Shown: one piece after another, positions 8,096 to 61,825 of the stretch
How the letters are laid out: every line of letters begins with the position of its first letter
How positions within the stretch are numbered: the first letter of the stretch is position 1
Translations under genes and position numbers: made by a program
The notes under the pieces: model-generated
The model's database searches: none
What the model saw: the letters and a program-made list of their open reading frames with translations, nothing else
Told to the model about the DNA's origin: nothing
Assembly: GCF_963676685.1 (NCBI RefSeq)
Contig: NC_092355.1
Span: 52,700,001-52,764,000 of the forward strand
DNA: 64,000 nt
Source: Mytilus edulis
Lineage: Eukaryota
Direction of reading: 5' to 3'

Positions 8096-8384
8096 AAATT
8101 GATTGTTCAACCAATCTTCTGCAATTCATATCTATCTTTGCTACTCTTATTGTCATTGAGAAAACAAGCATATCAGTATTAAAATACATGAATGTACGTC
8201 AAGTCAAAAAAAGTTTGGTTTAAGATTCATACATTTTGAAACTGAAAAAAAAAAATGTTTTGATACAGGAAATATCCCTAAACAGAATTTAAGATAAAAT
8301 TTAAGAAAACGATGAATAAGTTCTGAAAAAAGTATTACATCATTGTTCTTGTATTTACTTTGCAACATTTGTTGATCGAATAAT

Positions 8385-8796
8385 CAATTTAACATGTGTT
8401 GATCTAATACAGCAATTTAACATGTGTTGATCTAATATAGCAATTTAACATGTATTGATCTAGTATAGCAATTTAACATGTGTTGATCTAATATAGCAAT
8501 TTAACATTTGTTGATCTAATATCGCAATTTAACATTTGCTGATCTAATATAGCAATTTAACATATGTTGATCTGATATAGCAATTTAACATTTGTTGATC
8601 TAATATCGCAATTTATCATTTGCTGATCTAATATAGCAATTTAACATTTGTTGAACTAATATAGCAATTTAACATTTGTTGATCTAATATAAGCAATTTA
8701 ACATTTGTTGATGTAATATAGCAATTTATTATTTATTGATCTGATATAGCAATTTAACATTTGTTGATCTAATGTAGCAATTTAACATTTGTTGAG
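8385..8796. repeat. Minisatellite, 28-bp unit (caatttaacat[t/g]tgttgatctaatatag), ~14-15 copies
   Basis: Head-to-tail units with 28-bp period (8385, 8413, ...), point variants, no spacers. Confidence 0.95.
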
Positions 8797-9159
8797 CAAA
8801 TACAAAAAATCGGTCTATAAAACACTTAAAAGGAAAATGACAGATGGAGTAACATAACTGCCCCCAATACCAGCTGGGGTTAACACAGATGGGCTGGAAA
8901 GTCAAGCAGATAATGCTGCTTTATTTACATCCGTCATGTTGATGAAGATGAACATGATGCAGTGATTAACTATTTAAATAGGGGAAGCAGGATTCTGGCT
9001 TCAGACAAGCCATCATATGTTGCAGAGAAATTCAATAATTATCAACCAAGTCATGATGGCGTCCATCAAATGGAAAGGGGTAACTACAACACTTCTTATA
9101 GGAATCATCAAATGTGAATTATAGAACGAACCAATTTACTTTAGTTTCAATAGTCCTTA

Positions 9160-9950
9160 TATAAAATAAGGAGATGAGGTGTGATTGAAAATGAGACAAA
9201 TGTCCACCAAAGTTCAAATAAAGCTGATGTGAGCAATTATAGGCAACTGTACGGTCTTCAACAATGTTTAAAACATATATCAAATAGTCCGCTAGAAAAG
9301 GCCCGGAAATAAAATAAAAAAGACCTCAGTGGAGAAAACTATCGGTCGAATTCATAAGACAACATCTGTATTTTTGTCCATCTGATTAGTTGAGCCTCTT
9401 TCAACTGATTTTTATAGTTCGTTCTTAAGTTGTACTGTTATACCACTGTCCCAGGTTAGGGGAGTGTTGGGATCCCGCTAACATGTTTCACCCCGCCACA
9501 TTATGTATGTATGTGTCTGTCACTAGTCAGAAGCCTGCAATTCCGTGGTTGTCGTTTGTTTATGTGATACATATTTGTTTTTCGGTCATGTTTTAAAATG
9601 AATAAGGTCATTATATTTCTCGTTTGAATTGTTTTATATTGTCATTTCGGGATTTGCGCATTGTTGATGGCCATGTGGTGACCTATAGTTATTAATTTCT
9701 GTGTCATTTTGGTCTCTTGTGGAGAGTTTTCTCATTGGCAATCATACCACATCTTCTTTTTTATATTTAACGAAAATCAACTATGACAGACATAAACAAA
9801 CGACAAACACTGAACTATAGTTTCCTGTGAAAACAGGTTCATAAAGAAATGAAGAGCATGTTTGTGAGTGCTCATCTCTCCTCATAACCTAGGACAATGG
9901 TTACACAGCACAACAGAAAAAAAACTGTAAAATCAGTTAAAAAATGCTTT
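9160..9950. mobile_element. Nested copies of the twister-bearing repeat: an older minus-strand copy (9160-9360 and 9767-9950) interrupted by a plus-strand copy (~9361-9766)
   Basis: Plus copy is co-linear with 47780-48210 and ends ctcattggcaatcataccacatcttctttttt; flanks are reverse-complement pieces of the same family. Confidence 0.7.
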
Positions 9951-11920: not shown

Positions 11921-13747
11921 TCATAACAATGATTTTACTATATCGAGACATTTATTCAGTATGGTATAAACCTCTTCGATTTGGAAAATAAAGTATCGCT
12001 CCCGTATTGTGAGTTCAAGATCATGCAAAGCATTATGTTTTCCTCTTATATCCCCAAGTTTATTGAAACAAAGAAATTGTAGAAGATACGAGTACACAAC
12101 AGGAGGGAACCTAAGATCGTTGATGGGAATTAAAGGTTTCAGTTCGTCTGGCAATAAACAAAACGGGCGTCGGAAACATACATCTTCAATGATCAAATCT
12201 TTAAACGTTAGCAATAATCCAAATTGTTGCTTCATTTCCTGGAATATAGTTTGTTCGGCCAAGCTGTTGAGAATTGATAGATATATCTTGTCAGGAGTAC
12301 AATTTGATAAACTATAATTGATTATATCGAGACATTCCTTAAATCGTGTACATTTATAAAACAAAGATGCTAGAATTAACCAGGAGGAAACTGAATTGCT
12401 TAGTGAACATATCTTGAAATAACACAACATTCTCTTGTATTGTTTATAAGATGATTTGTTTCTGCCTGTCAGCTTAAGACACTCAGAAGATTGTATATAT
12501 TTTCTGAAACAAACACTTAACATGAACACACACATTTCTTTTTTTAAAACATAATTGTAACTTTCAACAAATCTTTTATACATTATTTGAATGGAATTAA
12601 CATCACCAATACAGAGACTTAAAACTGATAAATATGAAAAACAGGACAATTCCGTCGTAGTTAGTTTAATTCTATGCACATTTACTGATCCTGGCAAGAA
12701 TTGTTTGAAAGTTTTCGTATGAAATACATAAATCCACGGCGATCTATAAATAGACCGAAGTGTTTCTAGTAACTCTTTATGTCGGTTGTCAGTAAATCTG
12801 TCTTCAAACAGATTGTTTTCTGGTATAAAATAATGAAGACATGTTTTATATTCCACACAGTAAACAAGTCTTCTGATACAATCCAAGAAACAAGAAATCA
12901 TATTCTCAGGTTTCCATTCTGATGGACTTATCTCCTCACTCAACCAGAACATTATGGTTTTAAGAAAGTAGGAACAAAGCAAATCTTCATGTCTTGCTTT
13001 GATGAGGTCTTTTAAAATAATTTTCAGTAACGCATAACATAATAACTGAGTATGTGTAAATGAATGAATCAACATTTTTTCGGTTACAGAAAACGATATA
13101 CGCCATTGTAAATCCTCGTTTGGGGAATGTTTACAACCAATAGGAACAAATAAAACTCCGTATTGTACAGCTGCAGTAACTAGCATGTTATCTGGCCAAG
13201 CTGTACGTGATCTGTGAATCCATTGCTGAGCTGATGTGATCCATTTTTCACATCTTAAACAATCTGTAATTTCAATTAACCCATTAGCTGTAGAATGACA
13301 TGGACCATGAATAACCAAACAATCAGGTAAGTTGCTTTCACGAAGAAGTTTACTTGAGAGGTACATTGATTCTCCAACGGTATCAAACATATCATACATA
13401 GGATAAACAAACAATGATTTGTTAGCTAACTTAAGTTTTGCAAATCCAGGTTTTGTGTCGTATGTTTCCATAACCAATAGTAATTTATCTGAATTAGACT
13501 GGATGTCATCTAAGTTTTCATACACACGAATAAAGTTAAGAAGAACCATGATATCGAAATCACTACCTACGAGATCTAGACCTTCTGCTTTACTACCACT
13601 ACTTATGTAGTTTCCAAAAACAGCATTGTCACTAATGTCCTTAGCAGTAAATATTTCTCTTCTTGTTTTTACAACGTCTTCAGATCCGACGATGTTACAT
13701 AAGTAATCATAGAATTGAAGCGATAGATTCTTGTCTCTTAAATCCAT
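11921..13747 (-). CDS. cGAS-like receptor (cGLR; Mab-21 nucleotidyltransferase with helical C-terminal extension), copy 1, 608 aa
   Basis: SGSKAEGLDLVGSDFDIM (GS..DxD NTase motif), WRISFSVTEK, SYFLKTIMFW, CLHYFIPENNLF Mab-21 motifs; uninterrupted ORF; splice acceptor 13 nt upstream of ATG. Confidence 0.92.
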   Translation of the reverse strand: MDLRDKNLSLQFYDYLCNIVGSEDVVKTRREIFTAKDISDNAVFGNYISSGSKAEGLDLVGSDFDIMVLLNFIRVYENLDDIQSNSDKLLLVMETYDTKPGFAKLKLANKSLFVYPMYDMFDTVGESMYLSSKLLRESNLPDCLVIHGPCHSTANGLIEITDCLRCEKWITSAQQWIHRSRTAWPDNMLVTAAVQYGVLFVPIGCKHSPNEDLQWRISFSVTEKMLIHSFTHTQLLCYALLKIILKDLIKARHEDLLCSYFLKTIMFWLSEEISPSEWKPENMISCFLDCIRRLVYCVEYKTCLHYFIPENNLFEDRFTDNRHKELLETLRSIYRSPWIYVFHTKTFKQFLPGSVNVHRIKLTTTELSCFSYLSVLSLCIGDVNSIQIMYKRFVESYNYVLKKEMCVFMLSVCFRKYIQSSECLKLTGRNKSSYKQYKRMLCYFKICSLSNSVSSWLILASLFYKCTRFKECLDIINYSLSNCTPDKIYLSILNSLAEQTIFQEMKQQFGLLLTFKDLIIEDVCFRRPFCLLPDELKPLIPINDLRFPPVVYSYLLQFLCFNKLGDIRGKHNALHDLELTIRERYFIFQIEEVYTILNKCLDIVKSLL

Positions 13748-14806
13748 ATTTATTGCATACCTAGCAAAAATAGTAGATGTTCAAATACATACCCGTTATT
13801 TTATTATTTTAAGAAATATTTAATCAACTCAGTTTAGATATTATTTTGTCGAATCCTTGTCTTAACTACATGCTTATAAAAGTTTATCCTGACTTATTAT
13901 CGATGCTATATGTAGCAATTGTCCTGCCAATGATGTTAAACTGCAGTTTACGTTATATAAGATAAAAACTAAATATATAAAAATTTTAAACGTGATGAAA
14001 TATAATCGAAAATACTATGAATTTATATAATAGATAACAATGTTTGGCTTGGCTTCTGAATTCTTTCCATTTTTCCGTGAAAAGACATATTTCTTTTGTT
14101 CTGATCATTATTATTTTTCAGCCTTTCTGTTTTTTCCTTTGCTGTTTGTTTGTTTCGCAAGATATTGCTTAGATATTTGGTATATGGTATCAGTTAGAAA
14201 CTGGCACCGCTTAACTGAATACTTTTCCATGTAAGAGTTATCTCTCCGAACACCGTTTTTCTTGTTATTTCTTATGTTTTGAAACCGAAAAGAAGACCAT
14301 GATTTAATTTGCAAATTACTTGTTAAATCCTCTATATATATCTATTAACCTTCGTCGTAGGAGTAAAGAAATTATATATGAGAGTTATTTCCCCTTCTGA
14401 ATTTGATATTAGTGAATTTATTTGTTACTGGCAAACCCTAAGTGAAAAATACTTAGTGTCTTTTGATTCGAGGTCGTTGGTCCATATAAAGAGTATGAGG
14501 CTAAGGTCAAATAAAATCCTGGGTTTTTTTTACGTTCATGATTGTGCATGGAATCACTTACCTAAATGATATATCGCAACTTGTTAGTTTTTTAATCAAT
14601 GTTCCATGCCTTTTGAGGAAATATATAACCCGTCAAATACATTTGTTTTATCAAATTGAATGCACGTTTGTTATTCTATTTACATCATTTTAACAAATTG
14701 ATTTGTTTTTACTAAGAAAAGAAATATATTGCATAAAGTACTTCTTAAAAACAATGTATTAATCAATTGATAAACGTTTATTGAAAAACTAGTCAAGCAT
14801 ACTTAC

Positions 14807-26289: not shown

Positions 26290-28690
26290 GGCAATTTTTT
26301 GTCATGGATTTATTAGGACAGTTCAACTATGTATCAACCGGCCAACGAATTTGCATTCATCGACAATTTCTCATTAATGTCCAAGATAAAAACATTGAAG
26401 GGCAACCATCATATGTTTTCTCCAAATGGCAACTGGGCTACCAGACGCCAACTGTGATAAATTTAGCCAAATGCTAGCAAACTCCGTTTGTGAGCATCGC
26501 CAAACAAAATTTATCAATCCATGACAAAAAATTCACACTTAAACAAATTCTGAAATTACATAGGTTTTTAAATTTAACCATATCAATTGAACGTAGTAGA
26601 TCAACCATACTTACAACAGTTCAACGTAGTACATGTTTATGAACTATACTATACAACAGTTCAACGTATTATATCAACCATACTATACAACAGTTCAACG
26701 TAGTATATCAACCATACTATACAACAGTTCAACGTAGTATATCAACCATACTAAACAACAGTTCAACGTAGTATATCAACCATACTATACAACAGTTCAC
26801 CGTAGTATATCAACCATACTAAACAACAGTTCAACGTAGTATATCAACCATACTAAACAACAGTTCAACGTAGTATATCAACCATACTATACAACAGTTC
26901 AACGTAGTATATCAACCATACTAAACAACAGTTCAACGTAGTATATCAACCATACTAAACAACAGTTCAACGTAGTATATCAACCATACTATACAACAGT
27001 TCAAGGTAGTATAACAACCATACTATACAACAGTTCAAGGTAGTATAACAACCATACTATACAACAATACAAATATAAGCAATGTGTACAACTCAACATT
27101 TATTCACTTGACCGGAGTCCTATGTTCAAACCAATTTGAAACTGAACTCTTATAAAGGATTTCCCATTAATATGGTATAAAAGCGGACCATTATTTCCAG
27201 GTCTTATTTGCAAAAAAGTTATCAAATTACGTAAATGTAGAGGACAAATCTCATTTGTTTATTTTTATCAACAAACTTTTAAAGTAATGGATCTCCCTTT
27301 TTTATTTAGTTCAGAAAAAACTATAGTAATAAAAAGCTGACTTTACATGATCAATATATATCTCGCCTATGTTCAACATGTGATGGAGTGGCAAGTTCAC
27401 TCGCACGTAAAAATGCAGCACATACGAAGTTACATGCTGTTTGAAGCTTATAATTTTTATATTTCAAATTGCAACAATAGCCAAATTACCACAATGAAAT
27501 TCATTTAAATGCATAAAAAGATGACTAAAGCATAGGTATTATTTTTAAATAAGTGATGTCAACTAATAAAACTTTGTCCCAATTATATGGCTATTTTGAA
27601 AATGATCATGACCCATTTAAATAAACTGCACAACCCAAGAAAAAACCACCTGCACTGTCAGCATACAAATGTAAATCAGCATTAGAAAAGAGTTCATTTA
27701 CATTATATGTAAATTATCTTTTGTTAAAACTTCCTTTTGGGTTTTGTCTATTAGCAGAGTTGTTTAGGAAAGGTGCAATGTCATTCCTATTATACCTAGA
27801 TGGATCAGTATCAATTTCATTGTCCATAAATCGACGACATCTCAAGGAAGAGTGATCTAAACCACATTTGAGACATGCATGTCTGTATTGGCAATTGCGT
27901 TTATTGCAAAAACCTTTAAAATTTAAATCGTAGCATTTATTACTAACATCAGCGTGTTGTTGTTTTGAAGTATTGGCAGTTAAAATACGTAACTACAAAA
28001 AAACATCTATGGATGACCATTTCTTTCTATGATCCCTTGATACCCTTAAACGGAATTGTTGGTCATAAGAATAGCATTTTTCAAAAGAATGATCAGCTGC
28101 TGCACCCCTTATTATGGACATATACGAAAAAAGTTCACTTGCCTTTCCAGGATACCTTTCGATAAGGACCTTGGCATAGGCAATAAATGAATCAGTCCAA
28201 TCTTCAACAGAACTAACAGTATGGTTTTTTTTTTAACTTTGTTTGGAATAACTAGCATACCCTCATTGATGCCAATTGTGTTTTCATTATTTGTTTGGCT
28301 GTTAAAATTCTTACGGTGCATCAGAGACAAATCAATGTATTCAAAATTCCAAATTTGTCCTTAAGTTTTTGGCTTATAAATATGTCAACTTCATTAAAGT
28401 CAGGTAACAGTAGAGGTTCATCATAAACTTCATTTACCTCACCTAATGCAGCTAATTGCGGCTCATTCACTCGAATGTCAACAGGTCGCATGGCAACTAA
28501 TACGGGTTCATCAACCCGCAGTCTTCTTTATATATATGCTTCTTGCTCTACATCAGCTGGCGGACGCCTTCCCACATTTCTCACAACTGGTTGTGGCTGT
28601 TGTACTTCCCTGGGAGCCCTCCTAACCCGAAGCTCCGGACCTCTAACCTAGTCCTGTCGGCGACGTCTACCTTTACCTCTTGGCATTGTT
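26290..28690 (-). mobile_element. Degenerate DIRS/Ngaro tyrosine-recombinase retrotransposon (gag - RNase H - YR), RT deleted
   Basis: MPRGKGRRR start at 28686; gag WTDSFIAY..ELFSYMSIIRGAA..YDQQFRLR..WSSID and zinc finger CYDLNFKGFCNKRNCQYRHACLKCGLDHSSLRC; RNase H LHLYADSAGG..DITYL..FHCGNLAIV (27450-27710); YR FLRASEL..ICPL..FLQIRPGNNGPLLYHINGK (27100-27450). Confidence 0.8.
26575..27068. repeat. Minisatellite, 34-bp unit (caaccatacta[t/a]acaacagttcaacgtagtatat), ~14 copies
   Basis: Period 34 (26675, 26709, ...); two interspersed unit variants; no spacers. Confidence 0.95.
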
Positions 28691-33562: not shown

Positions 33563-35368
33563 TCATATTAATGATCTTACTATCTCGAGACTTTTATATA
33601 TGTTTCTTAAAGTAAACTTATCAGGTCTAATCAAGTATTGATTCCTCACTGTTAGTTCTAGATCGTGCAGTGCATCATGTTTTCCTCTGTTATTTCCAAG
33701 CTGATAAAAGCAAAGAAATTGTAGAAGATACGAGTACACAACAGGAGGAATACAAAAATATTTTCCGACTATTAAAGATTTCAGTTCGTCTGGCAATAAA
33801 TAGAATGGATATTGAAATGCCACAGCATCAATCATCAAATATTTAAATGCATACAATAATCCCCATTTTTGTTTCATCTGGTTGAAAATTGTCTGTTCAG
33901 CCAAGCTGTTGGCAAAATTTAGATATATCCTATCTGGGGTAGAACTGAATAAACAGTAGTTGATTATATCTAGACATTCCTGAAATCGTTTACAGTTGTA
34001 AAATATAGATGCTAGCCATAACCATGTTGAAGTCGACGATGAACGTAAACTTATCTTGAAAGAACATAATGATTTTTTTAATTGTTGGTAGAACAATTTG
34101 TTTCTAGCCATCATGTTACAAAGATGAGATGATTGTAAAAGTTCAATGGCACATACAGATAGTATGTGTGTAAATTGTTCCTTAGTTAAAAAAACGTTAA
34201 CAAGACGTTCAATTGCAATGTTAATTGATGATATGATTGGCATGGTCAGGTAACAATAACACGACAATTCCGACGCTGATAGTATCACTCCACGCGAATT
34301 AATTGATGCTAATCTGTAGTCCTGAAAAATAGAAGTTTCAAATACAGAAACCCATGGAGATTCATAGATAAACCGTAAAGTGTTCAGTACTGTCTTATGG
34401 TCTTTATCAGTAAATCTGTCTTCAAACAGATTGTTTTCTGGGATGAAGTATTGAAGACATGTTTTATATTCAACACAGTAAATCAGTCGTCTGATACAAT
34501 ACAAGAAACAAGAAATCATATTCTCCGGTTTCCATTCTGATGGACTTATTTCCTCATTTAACCAGAACATTATGGTTTTAAGAAAGTAGGAACAAAGCAG
34601 ATCGCCATGTCTCGGTTTGATGAGATCCTTCAAAATAATTTTCATTAACGCATAACATAATAGTTGAGTATGGGAAAAGGAATAAATCAACATCTTTTCA
34701 GTCATAGAAAACGATACCCGCCATTCTAAGTCCTCATTCGGAGAGTTTTTACATCCAATAGGAACAAATAAAACTCCGTATTCTACTGCTGAAGTTACTA
34801 ATTTGTGATGTAGCCCTGCTGTACGTGATCTGTGAATCCATTGTTGAGCTGGTGTGATCCATTCCTTACATCTTAAACATTCTGCATTATCAAATTCTTC
34901 ACCTAATGTAGACTGGCATGGACCATGAATAACCATGTCATCATCTAAGTCTTTTTCTCGAAAACGTTTACTTGAGATGTAAGTTTCTTTTCCAACAGTC
35001 TCATCACAGTCGTGTATACTACTAATACAATGGTATGCTTTGTTAGCTAACTTCAGTCTTGTAAATCCTGGTTTTGTGTCATTTGTTTCCATAACCAATA
35101 TTGTTTGTTGTGGATCATACTGAACATTATGTAAACTTTCATACACACGAATATAGTTATAAAGAATCATTATATCACAATCACTACCTTTGAGATCTAG
35201 ACCTTCTGATTTACTACCACTGCTTATATAGGTTGAATTTTTTTTATTTTGAACAATGTCCATCGCAGTAAATATCTGTCTTCTTGTCTTTACAACTTCC
35301 TCAGAACCGACGATGTTACACAAGTAATTATAAAATCGAAGTGACAGATTTTTGTCATTAAAATCCAT
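33563..35368 (-). CDS. cGAS-like receptor (cGLR; Mab-21 nucleotidyltransferase), copy 2, 601 aa from MDFNDKNLS
   Basis: SGSKSEGLDLKGSDCDIM, WRVSFSMTEK, SYFLKTIMFW, YFIPENNLF; co-linear with copy 1; start moved to ATG 35368 because it aligns with the copy 1 ATG and follows an acceptor tttttctAG (35383-35382). Confidence 0.92.
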   Translation of the reverse strand: MDFNDKNLSLRFYNYLCNIVGSEEVVKTRRQIFTAMDIVQNKKNSTYISSGSKSEGLDLKGSDCDIMILYNYIRVYESLHNVQYDPQQTILVMETNDTKPGFTRLKLANKAYHCISSIHDCDETVGKETYISSKRFREKDLDDDMVIHGPCQSTLGEEFDNAECLRCKEWITPAQQWIHRSRTAGLHHKLVTSAVEYGVLFVPIGCKNSPNEDLEWRVSFSMTEKMLIYSFSHTQLLCYALMKIILKDLIKPRHGDLLCSYFLKTIMFWLNEEISPSEWKPENMISCFLYCIRRLIYCVEYKTCLQYFIPENNLFEDRFTDKDHKTVLNTLRFIYESPWVSVFETSIFQDYRLASINSRGVILSASELSCYCYLTMPIISSINIAIERLVNVFLTKEQFTHILSVCAIELLQSSHLCNMMARNKLFYQQLKKSLCSFKISLRSSSTSTWLWLASIFYNCKRFQECLDIINYCLFSSTPDRIYLNFANSLAEQTIFNQMKQKWGLLYAFKYLMIDAVAFQYPFYLLPDELKSLIVGKYFCIPPVVYSYLLQFLCFYQLGNNRGKHDALHDLELTVRNQYLIRPDKFTLRNIYKSLEIVRSLI

Positions 35369-35729
35369 ATTTACAATATACCTAGAAAAACATAGATTTT
35401 TCAATACACACCAGTTATTCAATTATTTGAAGAAATATTTAATCAACCCCGTTATACAAATTTATTTGCCGAAACCCCGTCTTGACGAAATGCTTGACCA
35501 AATTTAGCTGACCTCAATATCGGAACAGAGTGCAGCCATAGTCCTTCCAATTATGTTAATTGGCAGGTATTTTGATATACATGTAAGATCGAGAAAAAAT
35601 ATTGAAAATGTTGATACGTAGTTAATCTTTTTGAAAATACAACAAATGAATGTTTTAAGAAAATAACAATTATTTGTTTGTTAAGCATTCCCACCTTTCC
35701 ATGAAAAGACCATATGCTTTTGTTCTCAT

Positions 35730-46689: not shown

Positions 46690-47175
46690 TGCATTTGCAT
46701 TTAGATATCGCAGATCAAATTTATTCATTTATAGTGTATCAATATTCGTTTTTTGATTGAGATAAGCCTGCCAATTAATATTTTACCGTGTGTTTTTCTA
46801 TGTAGTAATGTTATGCTATTGTTTCAGAAAAAGGGAGAAGATTTAGATCCTTTAAAACATTTAATCCTGCTGCAAATGTTTGCACCTGTCCTAAGTCAGG
46901 AATCTTATGTACAGTAGTTGTCGCATGTATATGTAATGTATACGTGTTTCTCGTTTCTCGTTTTTTTTTTTATATATATTAGACCGCTGGTTTTCCGTTT
47001 GAATGGTTTTACACTAGTAATTTTAGGGCCTTTTATAGCTTTTTGTTCGGTGTCAGCCAAGGCTCCGTGTTTAAGGCCTTACATTGACCTATAACGGTTT
47101 ACTTTTAATTTTAAATTGTTATTTGGATGGAGAGTTTTCTCACTGGCACTCACACCACATCTTCCTATATCTATT
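46690..47175 (+). mobile_element. 5'-truncated 3'-end copy of the same Naiad subfamily as 58060-61800 (includes twister-like motif 46815-46918)
   Basis: Co-linear with the reverse complement of 58060-58535; ends cactcacaccacatcttcctatatct. Confidence 0.85.
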
Positions 47176-47679: not shown

Positions 47680-48210
47680 GTTAGTGGCTTTAAACTAGCT
47701 GTCAGATAACTGCGAGTACTCTCAGATATGTTCATTGTGTCTTTTTGTGTCGGGATGTATAAGTACCCGGCAACGTCCACTTGTATTTGTTTGTCTATCT
47801 GATGAGTTAAGCCTTTTTCAACTGATTTTTATAGTTCGTTGTTATGTTGTACTGTTATACCACTGTCCCAGGTTAGGGGGAGGGTTGGGATCCCGCTAAC
47901 ATATTTAACCCCGACACATTATTTATGTATGTGCCTGTCCCAAGTCAGGAGCTTGTAATTCAGTGGTTGTCGTTTGTTTATGTGTTACATATTTGTTTTC
48001 GTTCATTTTTTTTAACTTAAAGAAGGCCGTTAGTTTTCTCGTTTGAATTGTTTTACATTGTCTTGTCGGGGCCTTTTATAGCTGACTATGCGGTATGGGC
48101 TTTGCTCATTGTTGAAGGCCGTACGGTGACCTATAGTTGTTAATGTTTGTGTCATTTTGGTCTTTTGTGGATAGTTGTCTCATTGGCAATCATACCACAT
48201 ATTCTTTGTA
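47680..48210 (+). mobile_element. Penelope/Naiad-related 3'-module repeat, second family (twister-like motif 47859-47967)
   Basis: Shares ordered blocks with the Naiad 3' UTR: ctagctgtcag.taactgcgagtactctc, gagttaag..aa[c/t]tgat, cctgtcc[c/t]aagtcagg, aggccgtac, gttgtctcattggca..accaca. Confidence 0.8.
47859..47967 (+). ncRNA. Type-P5 twister-ribozyme-like motif, second family (another copy at 9442-9549)
   Basis: ACCACUG..CAGGUU-a-GGGG-GA-GGG-[linker]-UAA-CCCC-G(A/C)-CACAU..AUGUG-CCUG-UCCC-AA-GU-CAGG-AGC(C/U)UG..CAGUGGU. Confidence 0.62.
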
Positions 48211-56473: not shown

Positions 56474-57509
56474 CGTCAGTCCGTCAGTCCTGTTTCTTGT
56501 CATCGCAACTCCTCTCAAACCACACAACAGAATTTCACGAAACCTTTTCAGATAATAAGGACATACTATGTAGTTGTGCATATCGACAGGAAATTGCGAT
56601 TCAATTTTTTTTCTAGGAGTTACGCCCCTTTGAACTTATTTACTTTAATGTACTACTGCAACAGTTTGTCATCGCAACTCCTCTCAAACCACACAACAGA
56701 ATTTCATGAAACTTTGTAGATAATAAGGACATACTATGTAGATGTGCATATCGACAGGAAATTACGGTTCAATTTTTTTTCTAGGAGTTATGCCCCTTTG
56801 AACTTATTTGCTTCAATGTACTTCTGCAACAGTTTGTCATCTCAACTCCTCTGAAAACACACAACAGAATTTCATGAAATTTTGTAGATAATAAGGACAT
56901 ACTATGTATATTGAAAGGAAATTATTATTCAATATTTTTTCTTATACAATTTTTTTTTCTTATACTTATTTAATTTCTCCAATGACAATGTGGGGACGTG
57001 GGGTATGTGAGCGTGCTCACTAAGGTTCTTTAATTTTGTACTGCAAAATATTTATGATTATATTGTCTTATATAAATATGTTTGCAGGTCTTGGCTAAAT
57101 CGTTCTAATGACTTAAAATGAAACTACCCCGGAAACAACTACAGCTTTCGTACAGATTGATCCAACCGAGTATAATAACTACATTCATATCTTTTACTCC
57201 ACAGGTAAAGGTATTCTGAATCAGCTTGCTGAATTGACGAGGGGCATTGTCTACACATCAGACATCGTTCTTCCAACGGCTAATGAAGCAGCTGAAATGT
57301 ATAGAAATGATTGTGGCTCTACGTTAACCAGACATTTGTCTTTCGGAACTGACCCTTTTCACACAGACAGAGGAAAAGAAATCTGCGAAATGGATATTAA
57401 CATACAGTTTCCTGACTTGTTAGAACTACTAGGTGAAACTTGCAACGAAAACTACGGTCCCTTTCAGAATGCTATTCTGTATCTGATAGCAAAAGTAAAA
57501 TCTGTATAA
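56150..57509 (+). pseudogene. Degenerate integrase-core (DDE) transposase remnant, possibly IS3EU-like, split by the HINE
   Basis: GKGILNQL..LPTANEAAEMY..GSTLT..FGTDPF..FPD..YGPFQNAI (ORF 57234-57509) and an upstream RDLNP remnant resemble this transposase family from memory; not verified. Confidence 0.35.
56422..57032 (+). mobile_element. HINE (Helentron-associated non-autonomous element) with ~2.6 internal 169-bp tandem repeats
   Basis: Sub-TIRs ataccccacg / cgtggggtat, 5' stem cgcaac-gaa-gttgcg, (ccgt) microsatellite, core repeats at 56501/56670/56838, 3' palindrome gtgagc-gt-gctcac. Confidence 0.85.
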
Positions 57510-58310
57510 TAAGTTCATTCAAATGTAGGACAAACAATTAGGTTTTTACACGAGCACAAAGGAGGATGATGACACCGATGGTATCAGATGTTATCAAATG
57601 TGCAATGAATAATTAACCAAGAAATAAAAATAAATCATCAATGGAACCAAGCTTATTACTGTGTACGCCAGACCCGTGTTTCTTCATCAAAAGAACCATC
57701 AGCGATGTTCGAATTCTAAAAGTTAAACGGCGAAATCAGATAAAAAATCAAGCATACCTAAAACAAATCAAAAAGCTAATAAAATTAAACGTGTTCAATC
57801 AGCTCAACCGAAGCAAAAAAAAAAAAAAAGAAAAATAGCCATATTCCTACAATTTAACTTGGTGCAGAGGCATTTCCTATTATATTTCCAACCTTAAAGC
57901 CTACTAGATTAACATTCAAACAGGCATACTATTAGGTTAAATTCACATTAATTGGGATTCAGCAAACAAAACTGTGTAATAACATCACACTTGACTGAAA
58001 AGTTCAAACAATTGTGAAGGTATAAATTCTGCGTATTTATATAGATGTATAGTACTAATACATAGATATAGGAAGATGTGGTGTGAGTGCCAATGAGACA
58101 ACTCTCCATACAAATAACAATTTAAAAAGTAAACCATTATAGGTTAAAGTACGGCCTTCAACATGGAGCCTTAGCTCACACCGAACAACAAGCTATAAAG
58201 GGCCCCAAAATTACTAGTGTAAAACCATTCAAACGGGAAAACCAACGGTCTAATCTATATAAACAAAACGAGAAACGAGAAACACGTATATATTACATAA
58301 ACAAACGACA

Positions 58311-58414
58311 ACTACTGTACATCAGATTCCTGACTTAGGACAGGTGCAAACATTTGCAGCGGGATTAAACGTTTTAATGGATCCAAACCTTCTCCCTTTT
58401 TCTGAAACAATAGC
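58311..58414 (-). ncRNA. Type-P5 twister-ribozyme-like motif in the Naiad 3' region
   Basis: P5-GGGA-GA-AGG-[linker]-UAA-UCCC-GC-(UGCAAA ug UUUGCA)-CCUG-UCCU-AA-GU-CAGG-P5'; compensatory changes relative to the 47859-47967 family. Confidence 0.68.
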
Positions 58415-59087: not shown

Positions 59088-61796
59088 TTAGTTATGTTTT
59101 AATTTGCTAATGACAATATCAATATTAGTGCCAATGTGAACTATATTCAGAGATCTTATTACAATATTGGTACGATAACCCTTACTTATAAGTTTGTTTA
59201 AAGGTTCGATGAGATTACAAGGATCACATAGTGATTTCCTCGCTTTAAGTACAATATTACCATAAAATTTAGGATGTGAAATACCATTTTTAATAAGCTT
59301 TCTACAGGTATAGCCAAATTTACTAATCAAATCTTTGTATCTCTGAAAGAATTTAGTAAAAGTTTTAAGTAATTTATGGTATCGAAATCCCTGACACAAC
59401 AATTTACCAGTGATGCATTGATTACGTTCGTTAAAATCTATGACATCAGAACACACACGGGCAAACCGAACGAGTTGCGATATATAAACACCGTATGATG
59501 GAGCCAAAGGCACATCGCCGTCTAAAAAAGGAAAATTAACAATAGGAAATGAAAAATCGTCTCTTTTGTCGTAAATTTTAGTGTGAAGTTTCCCGTTTGA
59601 AATTGAAATGTCTAAATCTAGAAAAGGACAACTGCTGCTGTTTATGTTAGATTTAGTTAAATTAAGTTCGTTTGGGTAAATTTCTGAAGTATATTTAGAG
59701 AACCCTGGATTATTCAACGAAAAAATATCATCCAGATAACGGTAGGTATTTTTGAATGTATCAACCAAATGTAACAATGATGGGTCTTTACTGAGTTTGG
59801 TCATAAACTGAGATTCATAGCAATATAGAAATAAATCTGCTATTAAAGGGGCACAGTTGGTGCCCATAGGAATACCTACTACCTGACGATACACTTTATC
59901 GCCGAAATGTACATAAATGTTATCAAGCAGAAAGTTTAAAGCTTCAATCATATCCTCACATTTCCAGTAAGTGTATCTAGCATATTTTCCTTTTTCGTTA
60001 CAGAAAAAGGCCTTAAACGAGTTACAGCAAATAAAATTACAATGAGATTTTTCGAAAGACCATTTTATCAAATACAAAAACTTTTTCTTTATAAGATTGT
60101 GTGGAAGTGTAGTGTACAGAGTAGAAAAATCATAACTGTCAACAGAATTGTAAGGACCATTGAAAGCATGTATTTTATCTAAAACCTCTAAAGAATTTTT
60201 AACACTCCAAAAATAATTAATACCATTATTTTCATAAGCTTTATTACAAAAGTTAATAACCAGTTCTTTGATAGTAGTAAGGGAGGTGGTTAGAAGCACT
60301 GATAGATTAGTAGTAAAACACTTACTGGAAGCGGAGATGAAACGGAATTTAAATGGTTTTTTGTGTAATTTCGGTAACCAGTACATGGTAGGGACTTTCA
60401 AATGTTCGGAAGATGCTTTAAGCTGGGCAGTGGCAGTGGTATGCTTGTTAACGATTTGACTCTCTGTGGTGCGCACTGACCTGAATGTAGAGGAATTGAT
60501 AATTTCGTTTTGAAGAACTTTTGTGTAGTATATGCGTCACACAACCACTACATTATTTGCTGCCTTGTCTGCTGGTACGAACACAAACCGCTCTGCGAGT
60601 ACCTTGAGTTTGTTTTTTATTCTAGAAATGGGTATATCATGGTTCCTATTATTAATTTCAGAATTGTTTTCTAAATGAGATATTCGAATATCAACCGTAT
60701 CCATAATTTTATTCAAATAACTGTCTAAAGATTTTTTATCGGATTTTTCACGTTTGCACCAATTTTTACAATAGGCAGACAGAGCGTCTTTAATGACCTG
60801 ACAACACTGTTTACAATTTATTGTAGATGGAGGACGGTATTTCGGTCCTTTCTTTAGAAAAGTTATGACTTCACGGTCATCGACGATGTTGAGGTCTCCT
60901 GTGATAACATGACCATCGGGAACATATTTAAAACTAGATGTTTCGCAATCTCAAGTGGAAGGAACATTATTTTCTATATTGACGTCTGTTGTAATTGACG
61001 TATAATTGAAAATCAAATTTCTGCTTGGTTTTTTATAAGAATACGAAATAATGGGTTGTTCTATATTATCAAAATATGGAGGTATTAAGCTATAGACAGA
61101 AGAGTCATTGAATATGCTAGACAAATTAATAAAATCAATACCTCTATTTATATATTTTAATTTGAGAAAATGTCGTTTATGATTTTCAGGTTTATCAATA
61201 ATAGGAAAAAGCCTGTGATGACAAATGGCTGTAATAATACGGGTATATTCATAAAATGGGCTAAAAAAAGAAATTTTATCACACTCCAGAAAAATAGCAT
61301 ATAATTTACTTATAGGTATCTGACCCAGTTTGCATAATACTTGATGTCTGCCATTATTCTTTATTATATATAACAGATCAGCAAGTGTATAATTTATACG
61401 ATGTTAAATACGTTGATTACGGTTCTTGCGTTTACCATGAGACCTATTATTTCTAAGTCGTTTATCAACAATATTAATGACATCGATATGAGTTTTAGAT
61501 ATGTTCCCCTGCCCTAATATTTTATCATTTAGACCGAGAGGATAAGCTGTTTGAAGTCTTTTTATCCAAAACAATTCGCGAACTTCGCGTGATTTTTCAA
61601 ATTGCTTGTGCGATTCTCCTGGTTGTTTTTGAACGGTTTCGAGCGGTTGGAATTTTATATATTTCAGATTATGATTATGCTTATCTAAATGCTGATATAC
61701 TAAACTTTTGAATTTTTTGGGTCTACGAAAGCGGTAGAGATGTTCTTGATTTCTTCTGAAATACTCTCGTCCCGTCTGTCCCACATATTGAATACC
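59088..61796 (-). CDS. Naiad EN-RT polyprotein, putative selenoprotein (UGA at 60953-60951 and 60539-60537; one inactivating TAA at 61406-61404)
   Basis: ORFs 61404-61784 and 59088-60476 are in the same frame (offset 1308 nt); the intervening sequence translates openly except PST-UGA-DC and ADKAANNVVVV-UGA-RIYY. Confidence 0.82.
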
Positions 61797-61825
61797 ACTG
61801 AGAGTTCATAAAACTTCATACTTAA

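Follow-up and report, generated by a model that had tools for sequence, protein, structure and literature searches.

What occupies the place of helix P1 in a twister ribozyme carried by a mussel retroelement, and could the replacement make self-cleavage depend on a second copy of the RNA? The question is raised by positions 58413-58312 on the minus strand of the window (the whole 64,000-nt stretch of Mytilus edulis DNA analyzed here), where a type-P5 twister fold lies inside the pseudo-LTR of a Naiad Penelope-like element. Our reading, in which we place little better than even confidence, is that P1 has been replaced by two conserved palindromes, that copies likely pair through them, and that cutting at U^A is likely turned on, or greatly enhanced, by this pairing.

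Fold and parts of the ribozyme

Judging from its sequence, the motif in the window is a type-P5 twister ribozyme, for which self-cleavage is predicted. A descriptor search and the folds recover the strand order P2'-GA-T1'-P1-NAA-P2-T2-P3-P4-L4-P4' closed by P5, with the place of P1 unpaired. Its parts, and the other copies in the window, are the following.

58401..58413, minus strand: P5 5' strands (58413-58407 and 58405-58401), closing the P5-type permutation; different sequences that still match their partners occur in families 2, 3, and 4
58388..58396, minus strand: P2 3' strand GGGA, general-base G (58392), A (58391), and T1 3' strand AGG (58390-58388)
58387-58368, minus strand: 20-nt segment between the T1 3' strand and the cut site
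58378..58385, minus strand: palindrome 1, TGGATCCA; subfamilies have a TA or GC center
58367..58374, minus strand: palindrome 2, AAACGTTT, whose last base is the scissile U
58365..58367, minus strand: U^AA, with the predicted cut between U-1 (58367) and A+1 (58366); reads end at the homologous position in family-3 RNA
58329..58364, minus strand: P2 5' strand, T2 5' strand, P3 hairpin, and P4 with L4 (TCCTAAGT)
58312..58326, minus strand: P5 3' strands (58326-58322 and 58318-58312)
58062..58366, minus strand: cut site to the fixed 3' end common to family copies, 305 nt
46800..46925, plus strand: second family-1 copy, both palindromes decayed
47859..47975, plus strand: family-2 copy, palindrome 1 intact (GGGATCCC, 47887-47894), palindrome 2 with one change (AACATATT)
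9443..9550, plus strand: family-2 copy, palindromes intact (GGGATCCC, 9469-9476; AACATGTT, 9480-9487), catalytic core decayed, with A+1 and L4 bases lost

In twisters, a conserved G serves as the general base. The G and A ahead of T1', the NAA at the cut, and the L4 consensus are all conserved here, and both pseudoknots covary: T1 as CCT/AGG, CCC/GGG, and ACC/GGT, and T2 as GC/GT, AC/GT, GC/GC, and CC/GG. Sites with a twister of this Naiad type number in the tens of thousands in this genome. No Rfam family matches the window at gathering score; below that score, the only match is twister-P1 (14.4 bits, E 6.7).

The type-P5 twister, as described in PMC6765202 and PMC10085705 (here and below, a citation stands for the portions of the paper that were consulted), shares with this motif the strand order, U^AA, P2, P3, P4, L4, T1, T2, the G and A, and the P5 end. 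The motif differs in having two palindromes instead of a P1 hairpin, and in sitting in an animal retroelement.

The host element

The ribozyme is located 725 nt past the stop of a 5'-truncated ORF and 305 nt ahead of the 3' end of the element.

59091..61805, minus strand: 5'-truncated Naiad ORF (GIY-YIG-type EN, CxC, DKA, RT), containing a TAA specific to this copy and two in-frame TGA that are conserved

By its domain order, motifs, and insertion pattern, the element is a Naiad Penelope-like element. Its GIY-YIG-type domain precedes the RT, and CxC, GPKY, and DKA motifs are present; the marks of Naiads are a GIY-YIG-type EN upstream of the RT, CxC, GxKF/Y, and DKA (PMC8557442, section 6). The published elements also share with the present ones the N-terminal position of the EN, partial tandems, a unit of 4.0-4.4 kb, and TGA at Cys (PMC8557442). 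Pfam reports only RVT_1 on the ORF (E 0.017). The Naiad units measure 4,444 and 4,031 nt, in keeping with the 3.4-4.4 kb body, and show 5' truncation and partial tandems. Copies of families 1-3 have a common 3' end 280-305 nt past the cut site and a variable 5' end. Two same-strand ribozymes, one unit apart, flank the ORF in 5 of 36 loci, which were taken from around the top RT matches for families 1 and 3; at one such tandem locus (L150), both ribozymes carry the GC variant.

Several further features of the element deserve mention. The in-frame TGA codons at 60951-60953 and 60537-60539 (minus strand) fall at cysteine positions and are conserved in families 1 and 3 (L147, L149, L150, L171); TGA at Cys sites has been described in clam and spider selenoprotein Naiads (PMC8557442). 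A putative SECIS-like hairpin is located at about 58957-58883. Back-to-back inverted pseudo-LTR pairs, as in descriptions of Naiads, are present at L056/L057 and L167.

Absence of P1

According to the initial annotation of this locus, a normal P1 cannot form between T1 and the UAA site. The comparison with other twisters bears this out: the number of end-to-end P1 pairs is 0 in 13 of 13 Naiad-type representatives, which are intact copies by choice, decayed ones having been left out, while four phage P5 twisters have 7, 8, 9, and 11. A P1 hairpin is present in 6 of the 7 descriptor hits obtained from 120 viral loci.

P1 defects are reported not to reduce cleavage by natural twisters (PMC11662667), and P1 has been called dispensable (PMC6154101); a twister without P1 is also described as cutting inefficiently (PMC8501958). 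Because P1 is described as dispensable in other twisters, its absence marks a twister variant and does not by itself force dimer dependence.

The T-variant twisters of Schistosoma Perere-3 likewise have a weak or missing P1 and are tied to a retrotransposon (PMC8501958). They occupy the 5' end of a LINE, target DNA supplies the rest of their P1, and their insertions begin at the cut. The Naiad ribozyme, in contrast, is found about 300 nt in from the 3' end; insertions extend across it, and its P1 region shows conservation.

Conservation and covariation of the palindromes

The annotation gave GGAUCC as the first palindrome. That sequence is self-complementary, as claimed, but the palindrome is longer, namely the 8-nt TGGATCCA. 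The second palindrome had been said to abut the scissile U, and so does its 6-nt core AACGTT, the full AAACGTTT including the U. Family 2 was said to have palindromes that differ in sequence yet are self-complementary, and they are seen as GGGATCCC with AACATGTT at 9469-9487. Palindromy across families, whose absence the annotation had named as a refutation, is kept with compensatory changes, the central pair included.

Two palindromes of at least 6 nt arise in 2.4% of shuffles of the 20-nt segment of the window, which makes one copy by itself no more than modest evidence; the palindromes gain evidential weight because covariation is seen across families. Copies were gathered by patterns anchored outside the segment, which gave 2,655 matches (43 in the control) and 14,724 (14 in the control); a family-4 26-mer has 7,196 exact matches. 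A hand count of palindrome-1 centers in the first 100 rows listed of the 2,655 matches comprised 92 family-1 rows, of which 88 are self-complementary (43 AT, 43 TA, and 2 GC) and 4 are not; the other 8 rows were 4 of family 4, 1 other, and 3 likely chance matches. Where the first center position is G or C, 47 of 69 copies read GC. TA and GC centers each mark a subfamily of their own with diagnostic changes (96 copies), and the two center substitutions are linked, with matching counts in RNA reads.

Seven distinct palindrome-1 8-mers form 28 of 28 pairs, a value reached by 0 of 100,000 permutations; pairs were counted at anchored positions, the related families are not independent, and families 5, 6, and M3 have few copies. 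All four self-complementary centers occur among these 8-mers. Every one of the four pairs of palindrome 1 varies, and so does its length (6-12 nt, with a symmetric 2-nt indel in family 4), with symmetry retained throughout. Palindrome 2 is less variable, with centers CATG, CTAG, CCGG, and CG together with odd-length forms, and taken alone it is not significant by permutation (0.17).

No second covarying partner site was seen within the unit in the three units checked. A single strand cannot form the central pair, which, together with the absence of a further covarying site from these units, makes another copy the most likely partner. In our opinion, the covariation makes it highly probable that the palindromes pair between two RNA copies.

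A proposed model of cleavage gated by pairing

Whether pairing between copies gates the cut is, in our estimate, about an even call; that cutting is strictly limited to tandem transcripts, as the annotation had it, we hold to be less probable than gating itself. The annotation further proposed that copies pair intermolecularly to supply P1. The compensatory changes, which extend to the central pair, speak for the pairing, and tandem loci do have a ribozyme on each side of the ORF, but a dimer cannot rebuild a canonical P1, because the two palindromes are not complementary to each other. Only a palindrome-2 duplex would occupy the place of P1. Predicted duplex energies are -10.9 to -18.9 kcal/mol for palindrome 1 and -5.3 to -10.1 kcal/mol for palindrome 2.

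When 12 monomers were folded without pseudoknots, the best pairing in most of them engages the T1 3' strand and UU wrongly, either with palindrome 2 (its 5' half) or with the P2 strand and the AA of the cut site; this mispairing model involves 3-5 pairs and carries no pseudoknot or tertiary energy. In the family-1 misfold, the general-base G pairs with U-1, and palindrome 1 is left in a 10-nt loop. A switch can be pictured from these folds. In a lone copy, the T1 3' strand and UU would be mispaired, with the core held off and palindrome 1 exposed in a loop, on which another copy would dock with its own palindrome 1; a palindrome-2 duplex would then form beside the scissile U as a stand-in for P1, releasing T1. 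The purpose might be to have two-copy RNAs, such as a tandem precursor, cut in preference to host transcripts that cross any one of the numerous lone copies. Formation of two helices simultaneously between closed loops may be topologically hard.

For dimer dependence, likeness to the hammerheads of Penelope-like elements offers an argument by analogy only. The minimal hammerheads of Penelope cleave as dimers and not as monomers; they too are pseudo-LTR ribozymes in which a palindrome replaces the helix beside the cut, and their tandem copies flank an ORF (PMC4209133). The differences are that the core here is that of a twister and not of a hammerhead, and that two palindromes are present here and one there, where dimerization restores helix III of the hammerhead directly. 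Hammerheads of this dimer type have already been described in Penelope-like elements (PMC4209133, PMC6765202).

A more far-reaching proposal, which we advance tentatively and would not ourselves bet on, is that of an obligate-dimer twister with a self-inhibited monomer, a two-helix switch unlike known P1, independence from the hammerheads of Penelope-like elements, and subfamily-specific palindromes, the two-palindrome module being a Naiad-wide dimer signal that includes the second motif described below. To our knowledge, no natural twister that is an obligate dimer would have preceded it. The minimal dimer hammerheads of Penelope-like elements were reportedly treated by Lunse in 2017. If the obligate-dimer reading is true, family-specific palindromes would keep subfamilies from pairing. 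Should the cut prove to be gated by pairing, two ribozyme classes with no relation to each other would have converged on a count-two rule in one retroelement group, the purpose of Penelope ribozymes would become testable with a 120-nt RNA, and the motif would be a natural partner-dependent twister switch with orthogonal variants.

RNA read ends and the question of lone-copy cleavage

Among the listed carriers of the motif, no RNA record was present. Four raw RNA runs under the same species label were mapped on a young family-3 unit. In 3 of the 4 runs, all three from one study, reads end at position 835, which is A+1 (13 ends at depth 65, 14 at 65, and 43 at 108); among the 22 rows listed, it is the sole place common to the three. 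These are taken as 5' ends by the usual stranded-library convention, and cutting at A+1 may have occurred during extraction. The fourth run has no end pile at A+1 among the matches listed, and family 1 RNA has none at the cut at the threshold used. Two runs show other piles of read starts or ends in the RT coding region (L171:1607-1625), at positions that differ between them.

Sense reads across the tandem junction number 2-4, and the 5' UTR has a depth of 0-6, versus 13-43 cut ends. This excess fits cutting of lone copies; it also fits cutting of tandems, provided that library selection removes the unit once it is cut. Cut ends that outnumber junction reads count in favor of the strongest alternative, which we judge possible, though somewhat unlikely: a P1-less monomer cuts, and the palindromes are a separate RNA dimerization signal of the element that lies in the P1 loop by chance. 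Such a signal would bring together the two pseudo-LTRs, or a pair of RNAs, to serve reverse transcription, template jumping, or the loading of protein. The dispensability of P1 in twisters (PMC11662667, PMC6154101) agrees with monomer cutting, and two covarying palindromes sit in an unrelated Naiad 3' motif too. With such palindromes present in other Naiads outside a twister, pairing may benefit the element rather than catalysis. Moreover, in another Penelope-like element, the hammerhead is unneeded for insertion in vitro, and the protein is a predicted dimer; another Penelope-like hammerhead is described as needing the protein (PMC11167929).

A chance location is hard to reconcile with two regularities: in all families the scissile base is the last one of palindrome 2, and the spacing from T1 is constant at 20-23 nt. 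Reads that cross the site uncut are at least as numerous as cut ends; lone copies are therefore not cut efficiently. The insertions point the same way, with 1,476 of 1,595 retaining four bases across the cut site and no excess of 5' insertion ends seen at the cut; of eight exceptions fetched, two were junctions at the site, about the background rate.

Because insertions read through the site, their template was either uncut or re-ligated there. The second possibility leads to an alternative that we regard as improbable, namely a ligated or circular unit-length RNA intermediate. It is in keeping with insertions that are longer than one unit and cross two cut sites (L147, L150, L165, L169, L171), with an intact site in every copy, with palindrome 2 being the free 3' end after cutting, and with the circular intermediate proposed for Penelope hammerheads (PMC4209133). 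Uncut tandem RNA, however, accounts for such insertions, being the main template in vitro for another element (PMC11167929), and short reads cannot separate a circle from a tandem transcript.

Short palindromes are typical of binding sites of dimeric proteins, and GT-center copies, the expected RNA wobble intermediate, form no clade (8 copies of mixed background, a test that favors neither side). That the palindromes are DNA sites of such a protein, or a by-product of template-switch mutation, with the RNA unpaired, is nevertheless very improbable: sequences differ at all four palindrome-1 pairs and in length with symmetry retained, the RTs of the AT and GC subfamilies are each 98-99% identical to that of the window, and non-palindromic centers founded no large subfamilies.

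Occurrence in other Naiads

The motif is recognizable by eye at 5 of the 24 published Naiad consensus ends (last ~450 nt, supplement of PMC8557442).

Naiad_Mgal consensus end: palindrome 1 AGCTAGCT, palindrome 2 AACC-A-GGTT
Bpla Naiad consensus end: palindrome 1 GGCGCC, palindrome 2 AATC-T-GATT
Mphi Naiad consensus end: palindrome 1 TGATGCATCA, palindrome 2 AACC-T-GGTT
Scon Naiad consensus end: palindrome 1 TGGAGCGCTCCA, palindrome 2 AACC-A-GGTT
Mmer Naiad consensus end: palindrome 1 GGTGCGCACC, palindrome 2 AACCGGTT

Scon and Mmer are clams, and compensatory changes are found in their P2, T2, and P4 as well. Bpla and Mphi we take to be mytilids. Further variants come from metagenome contigs, where 119 loci give 9 descriptor hits of the Naiad type, in addition to decayed ones.

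Family 4 (L207-L236) has a short P2 of two pairs plus a mismatch, T1 of ACC/GGT, T2 of AC/GT, and a 3' end ~160 nt past the cut. In one of its subfamilies, C replaces the scissile U; this subfamily resembles, by eye, the Naiad_Mgal end.

Naiads were reported without the canonical hammerhead, and the consulted text of that report contains no occurrence of the word twister (PMC8557442). In the literature searched, most subscription papers and the supplement of PMC11662667 being outside the search, no description of a palindromic twister in Naiads was found. That supplement may list bivalve twisters, since bivalves are named among the new groups of the paper (PMC11662667). Several bivalve Naiads gain a ribozyme by the present findings, and they belong to a group described without the hammerhead of other Penelope-like elements.

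A second RNA motif and other observations

A second, unrelated RNA motif occurs at Naiad-like 3' ends. In it, a GGGTG/CACC helix encloses two covarying palindromes, one of 10 nt and the other of 6-8 nt. The motif has no Rfam match and is possibly an undescribed ribozyme or dimer signal.

L031:2599-2700, L155:5086-5190, also L169, L195, L203, L218, and L219: second motif in this genome
CGi, Sglo, Olur, Tgra, Pmar, Skow-1, and Skow-2: second motif at 7 consensus ends of the PMC8557442 supplement

Elsewhere in the window, paralogous 619-codon frames at 11924-13780 and 33566-35422 (minus strand) belong to a duplicated block whose copies are ~21.6 kb apart, and tandem arrays of 28, 34, and 168 nt are located at 8364-8802, 26590-27066, and 56497-56908, respectively.
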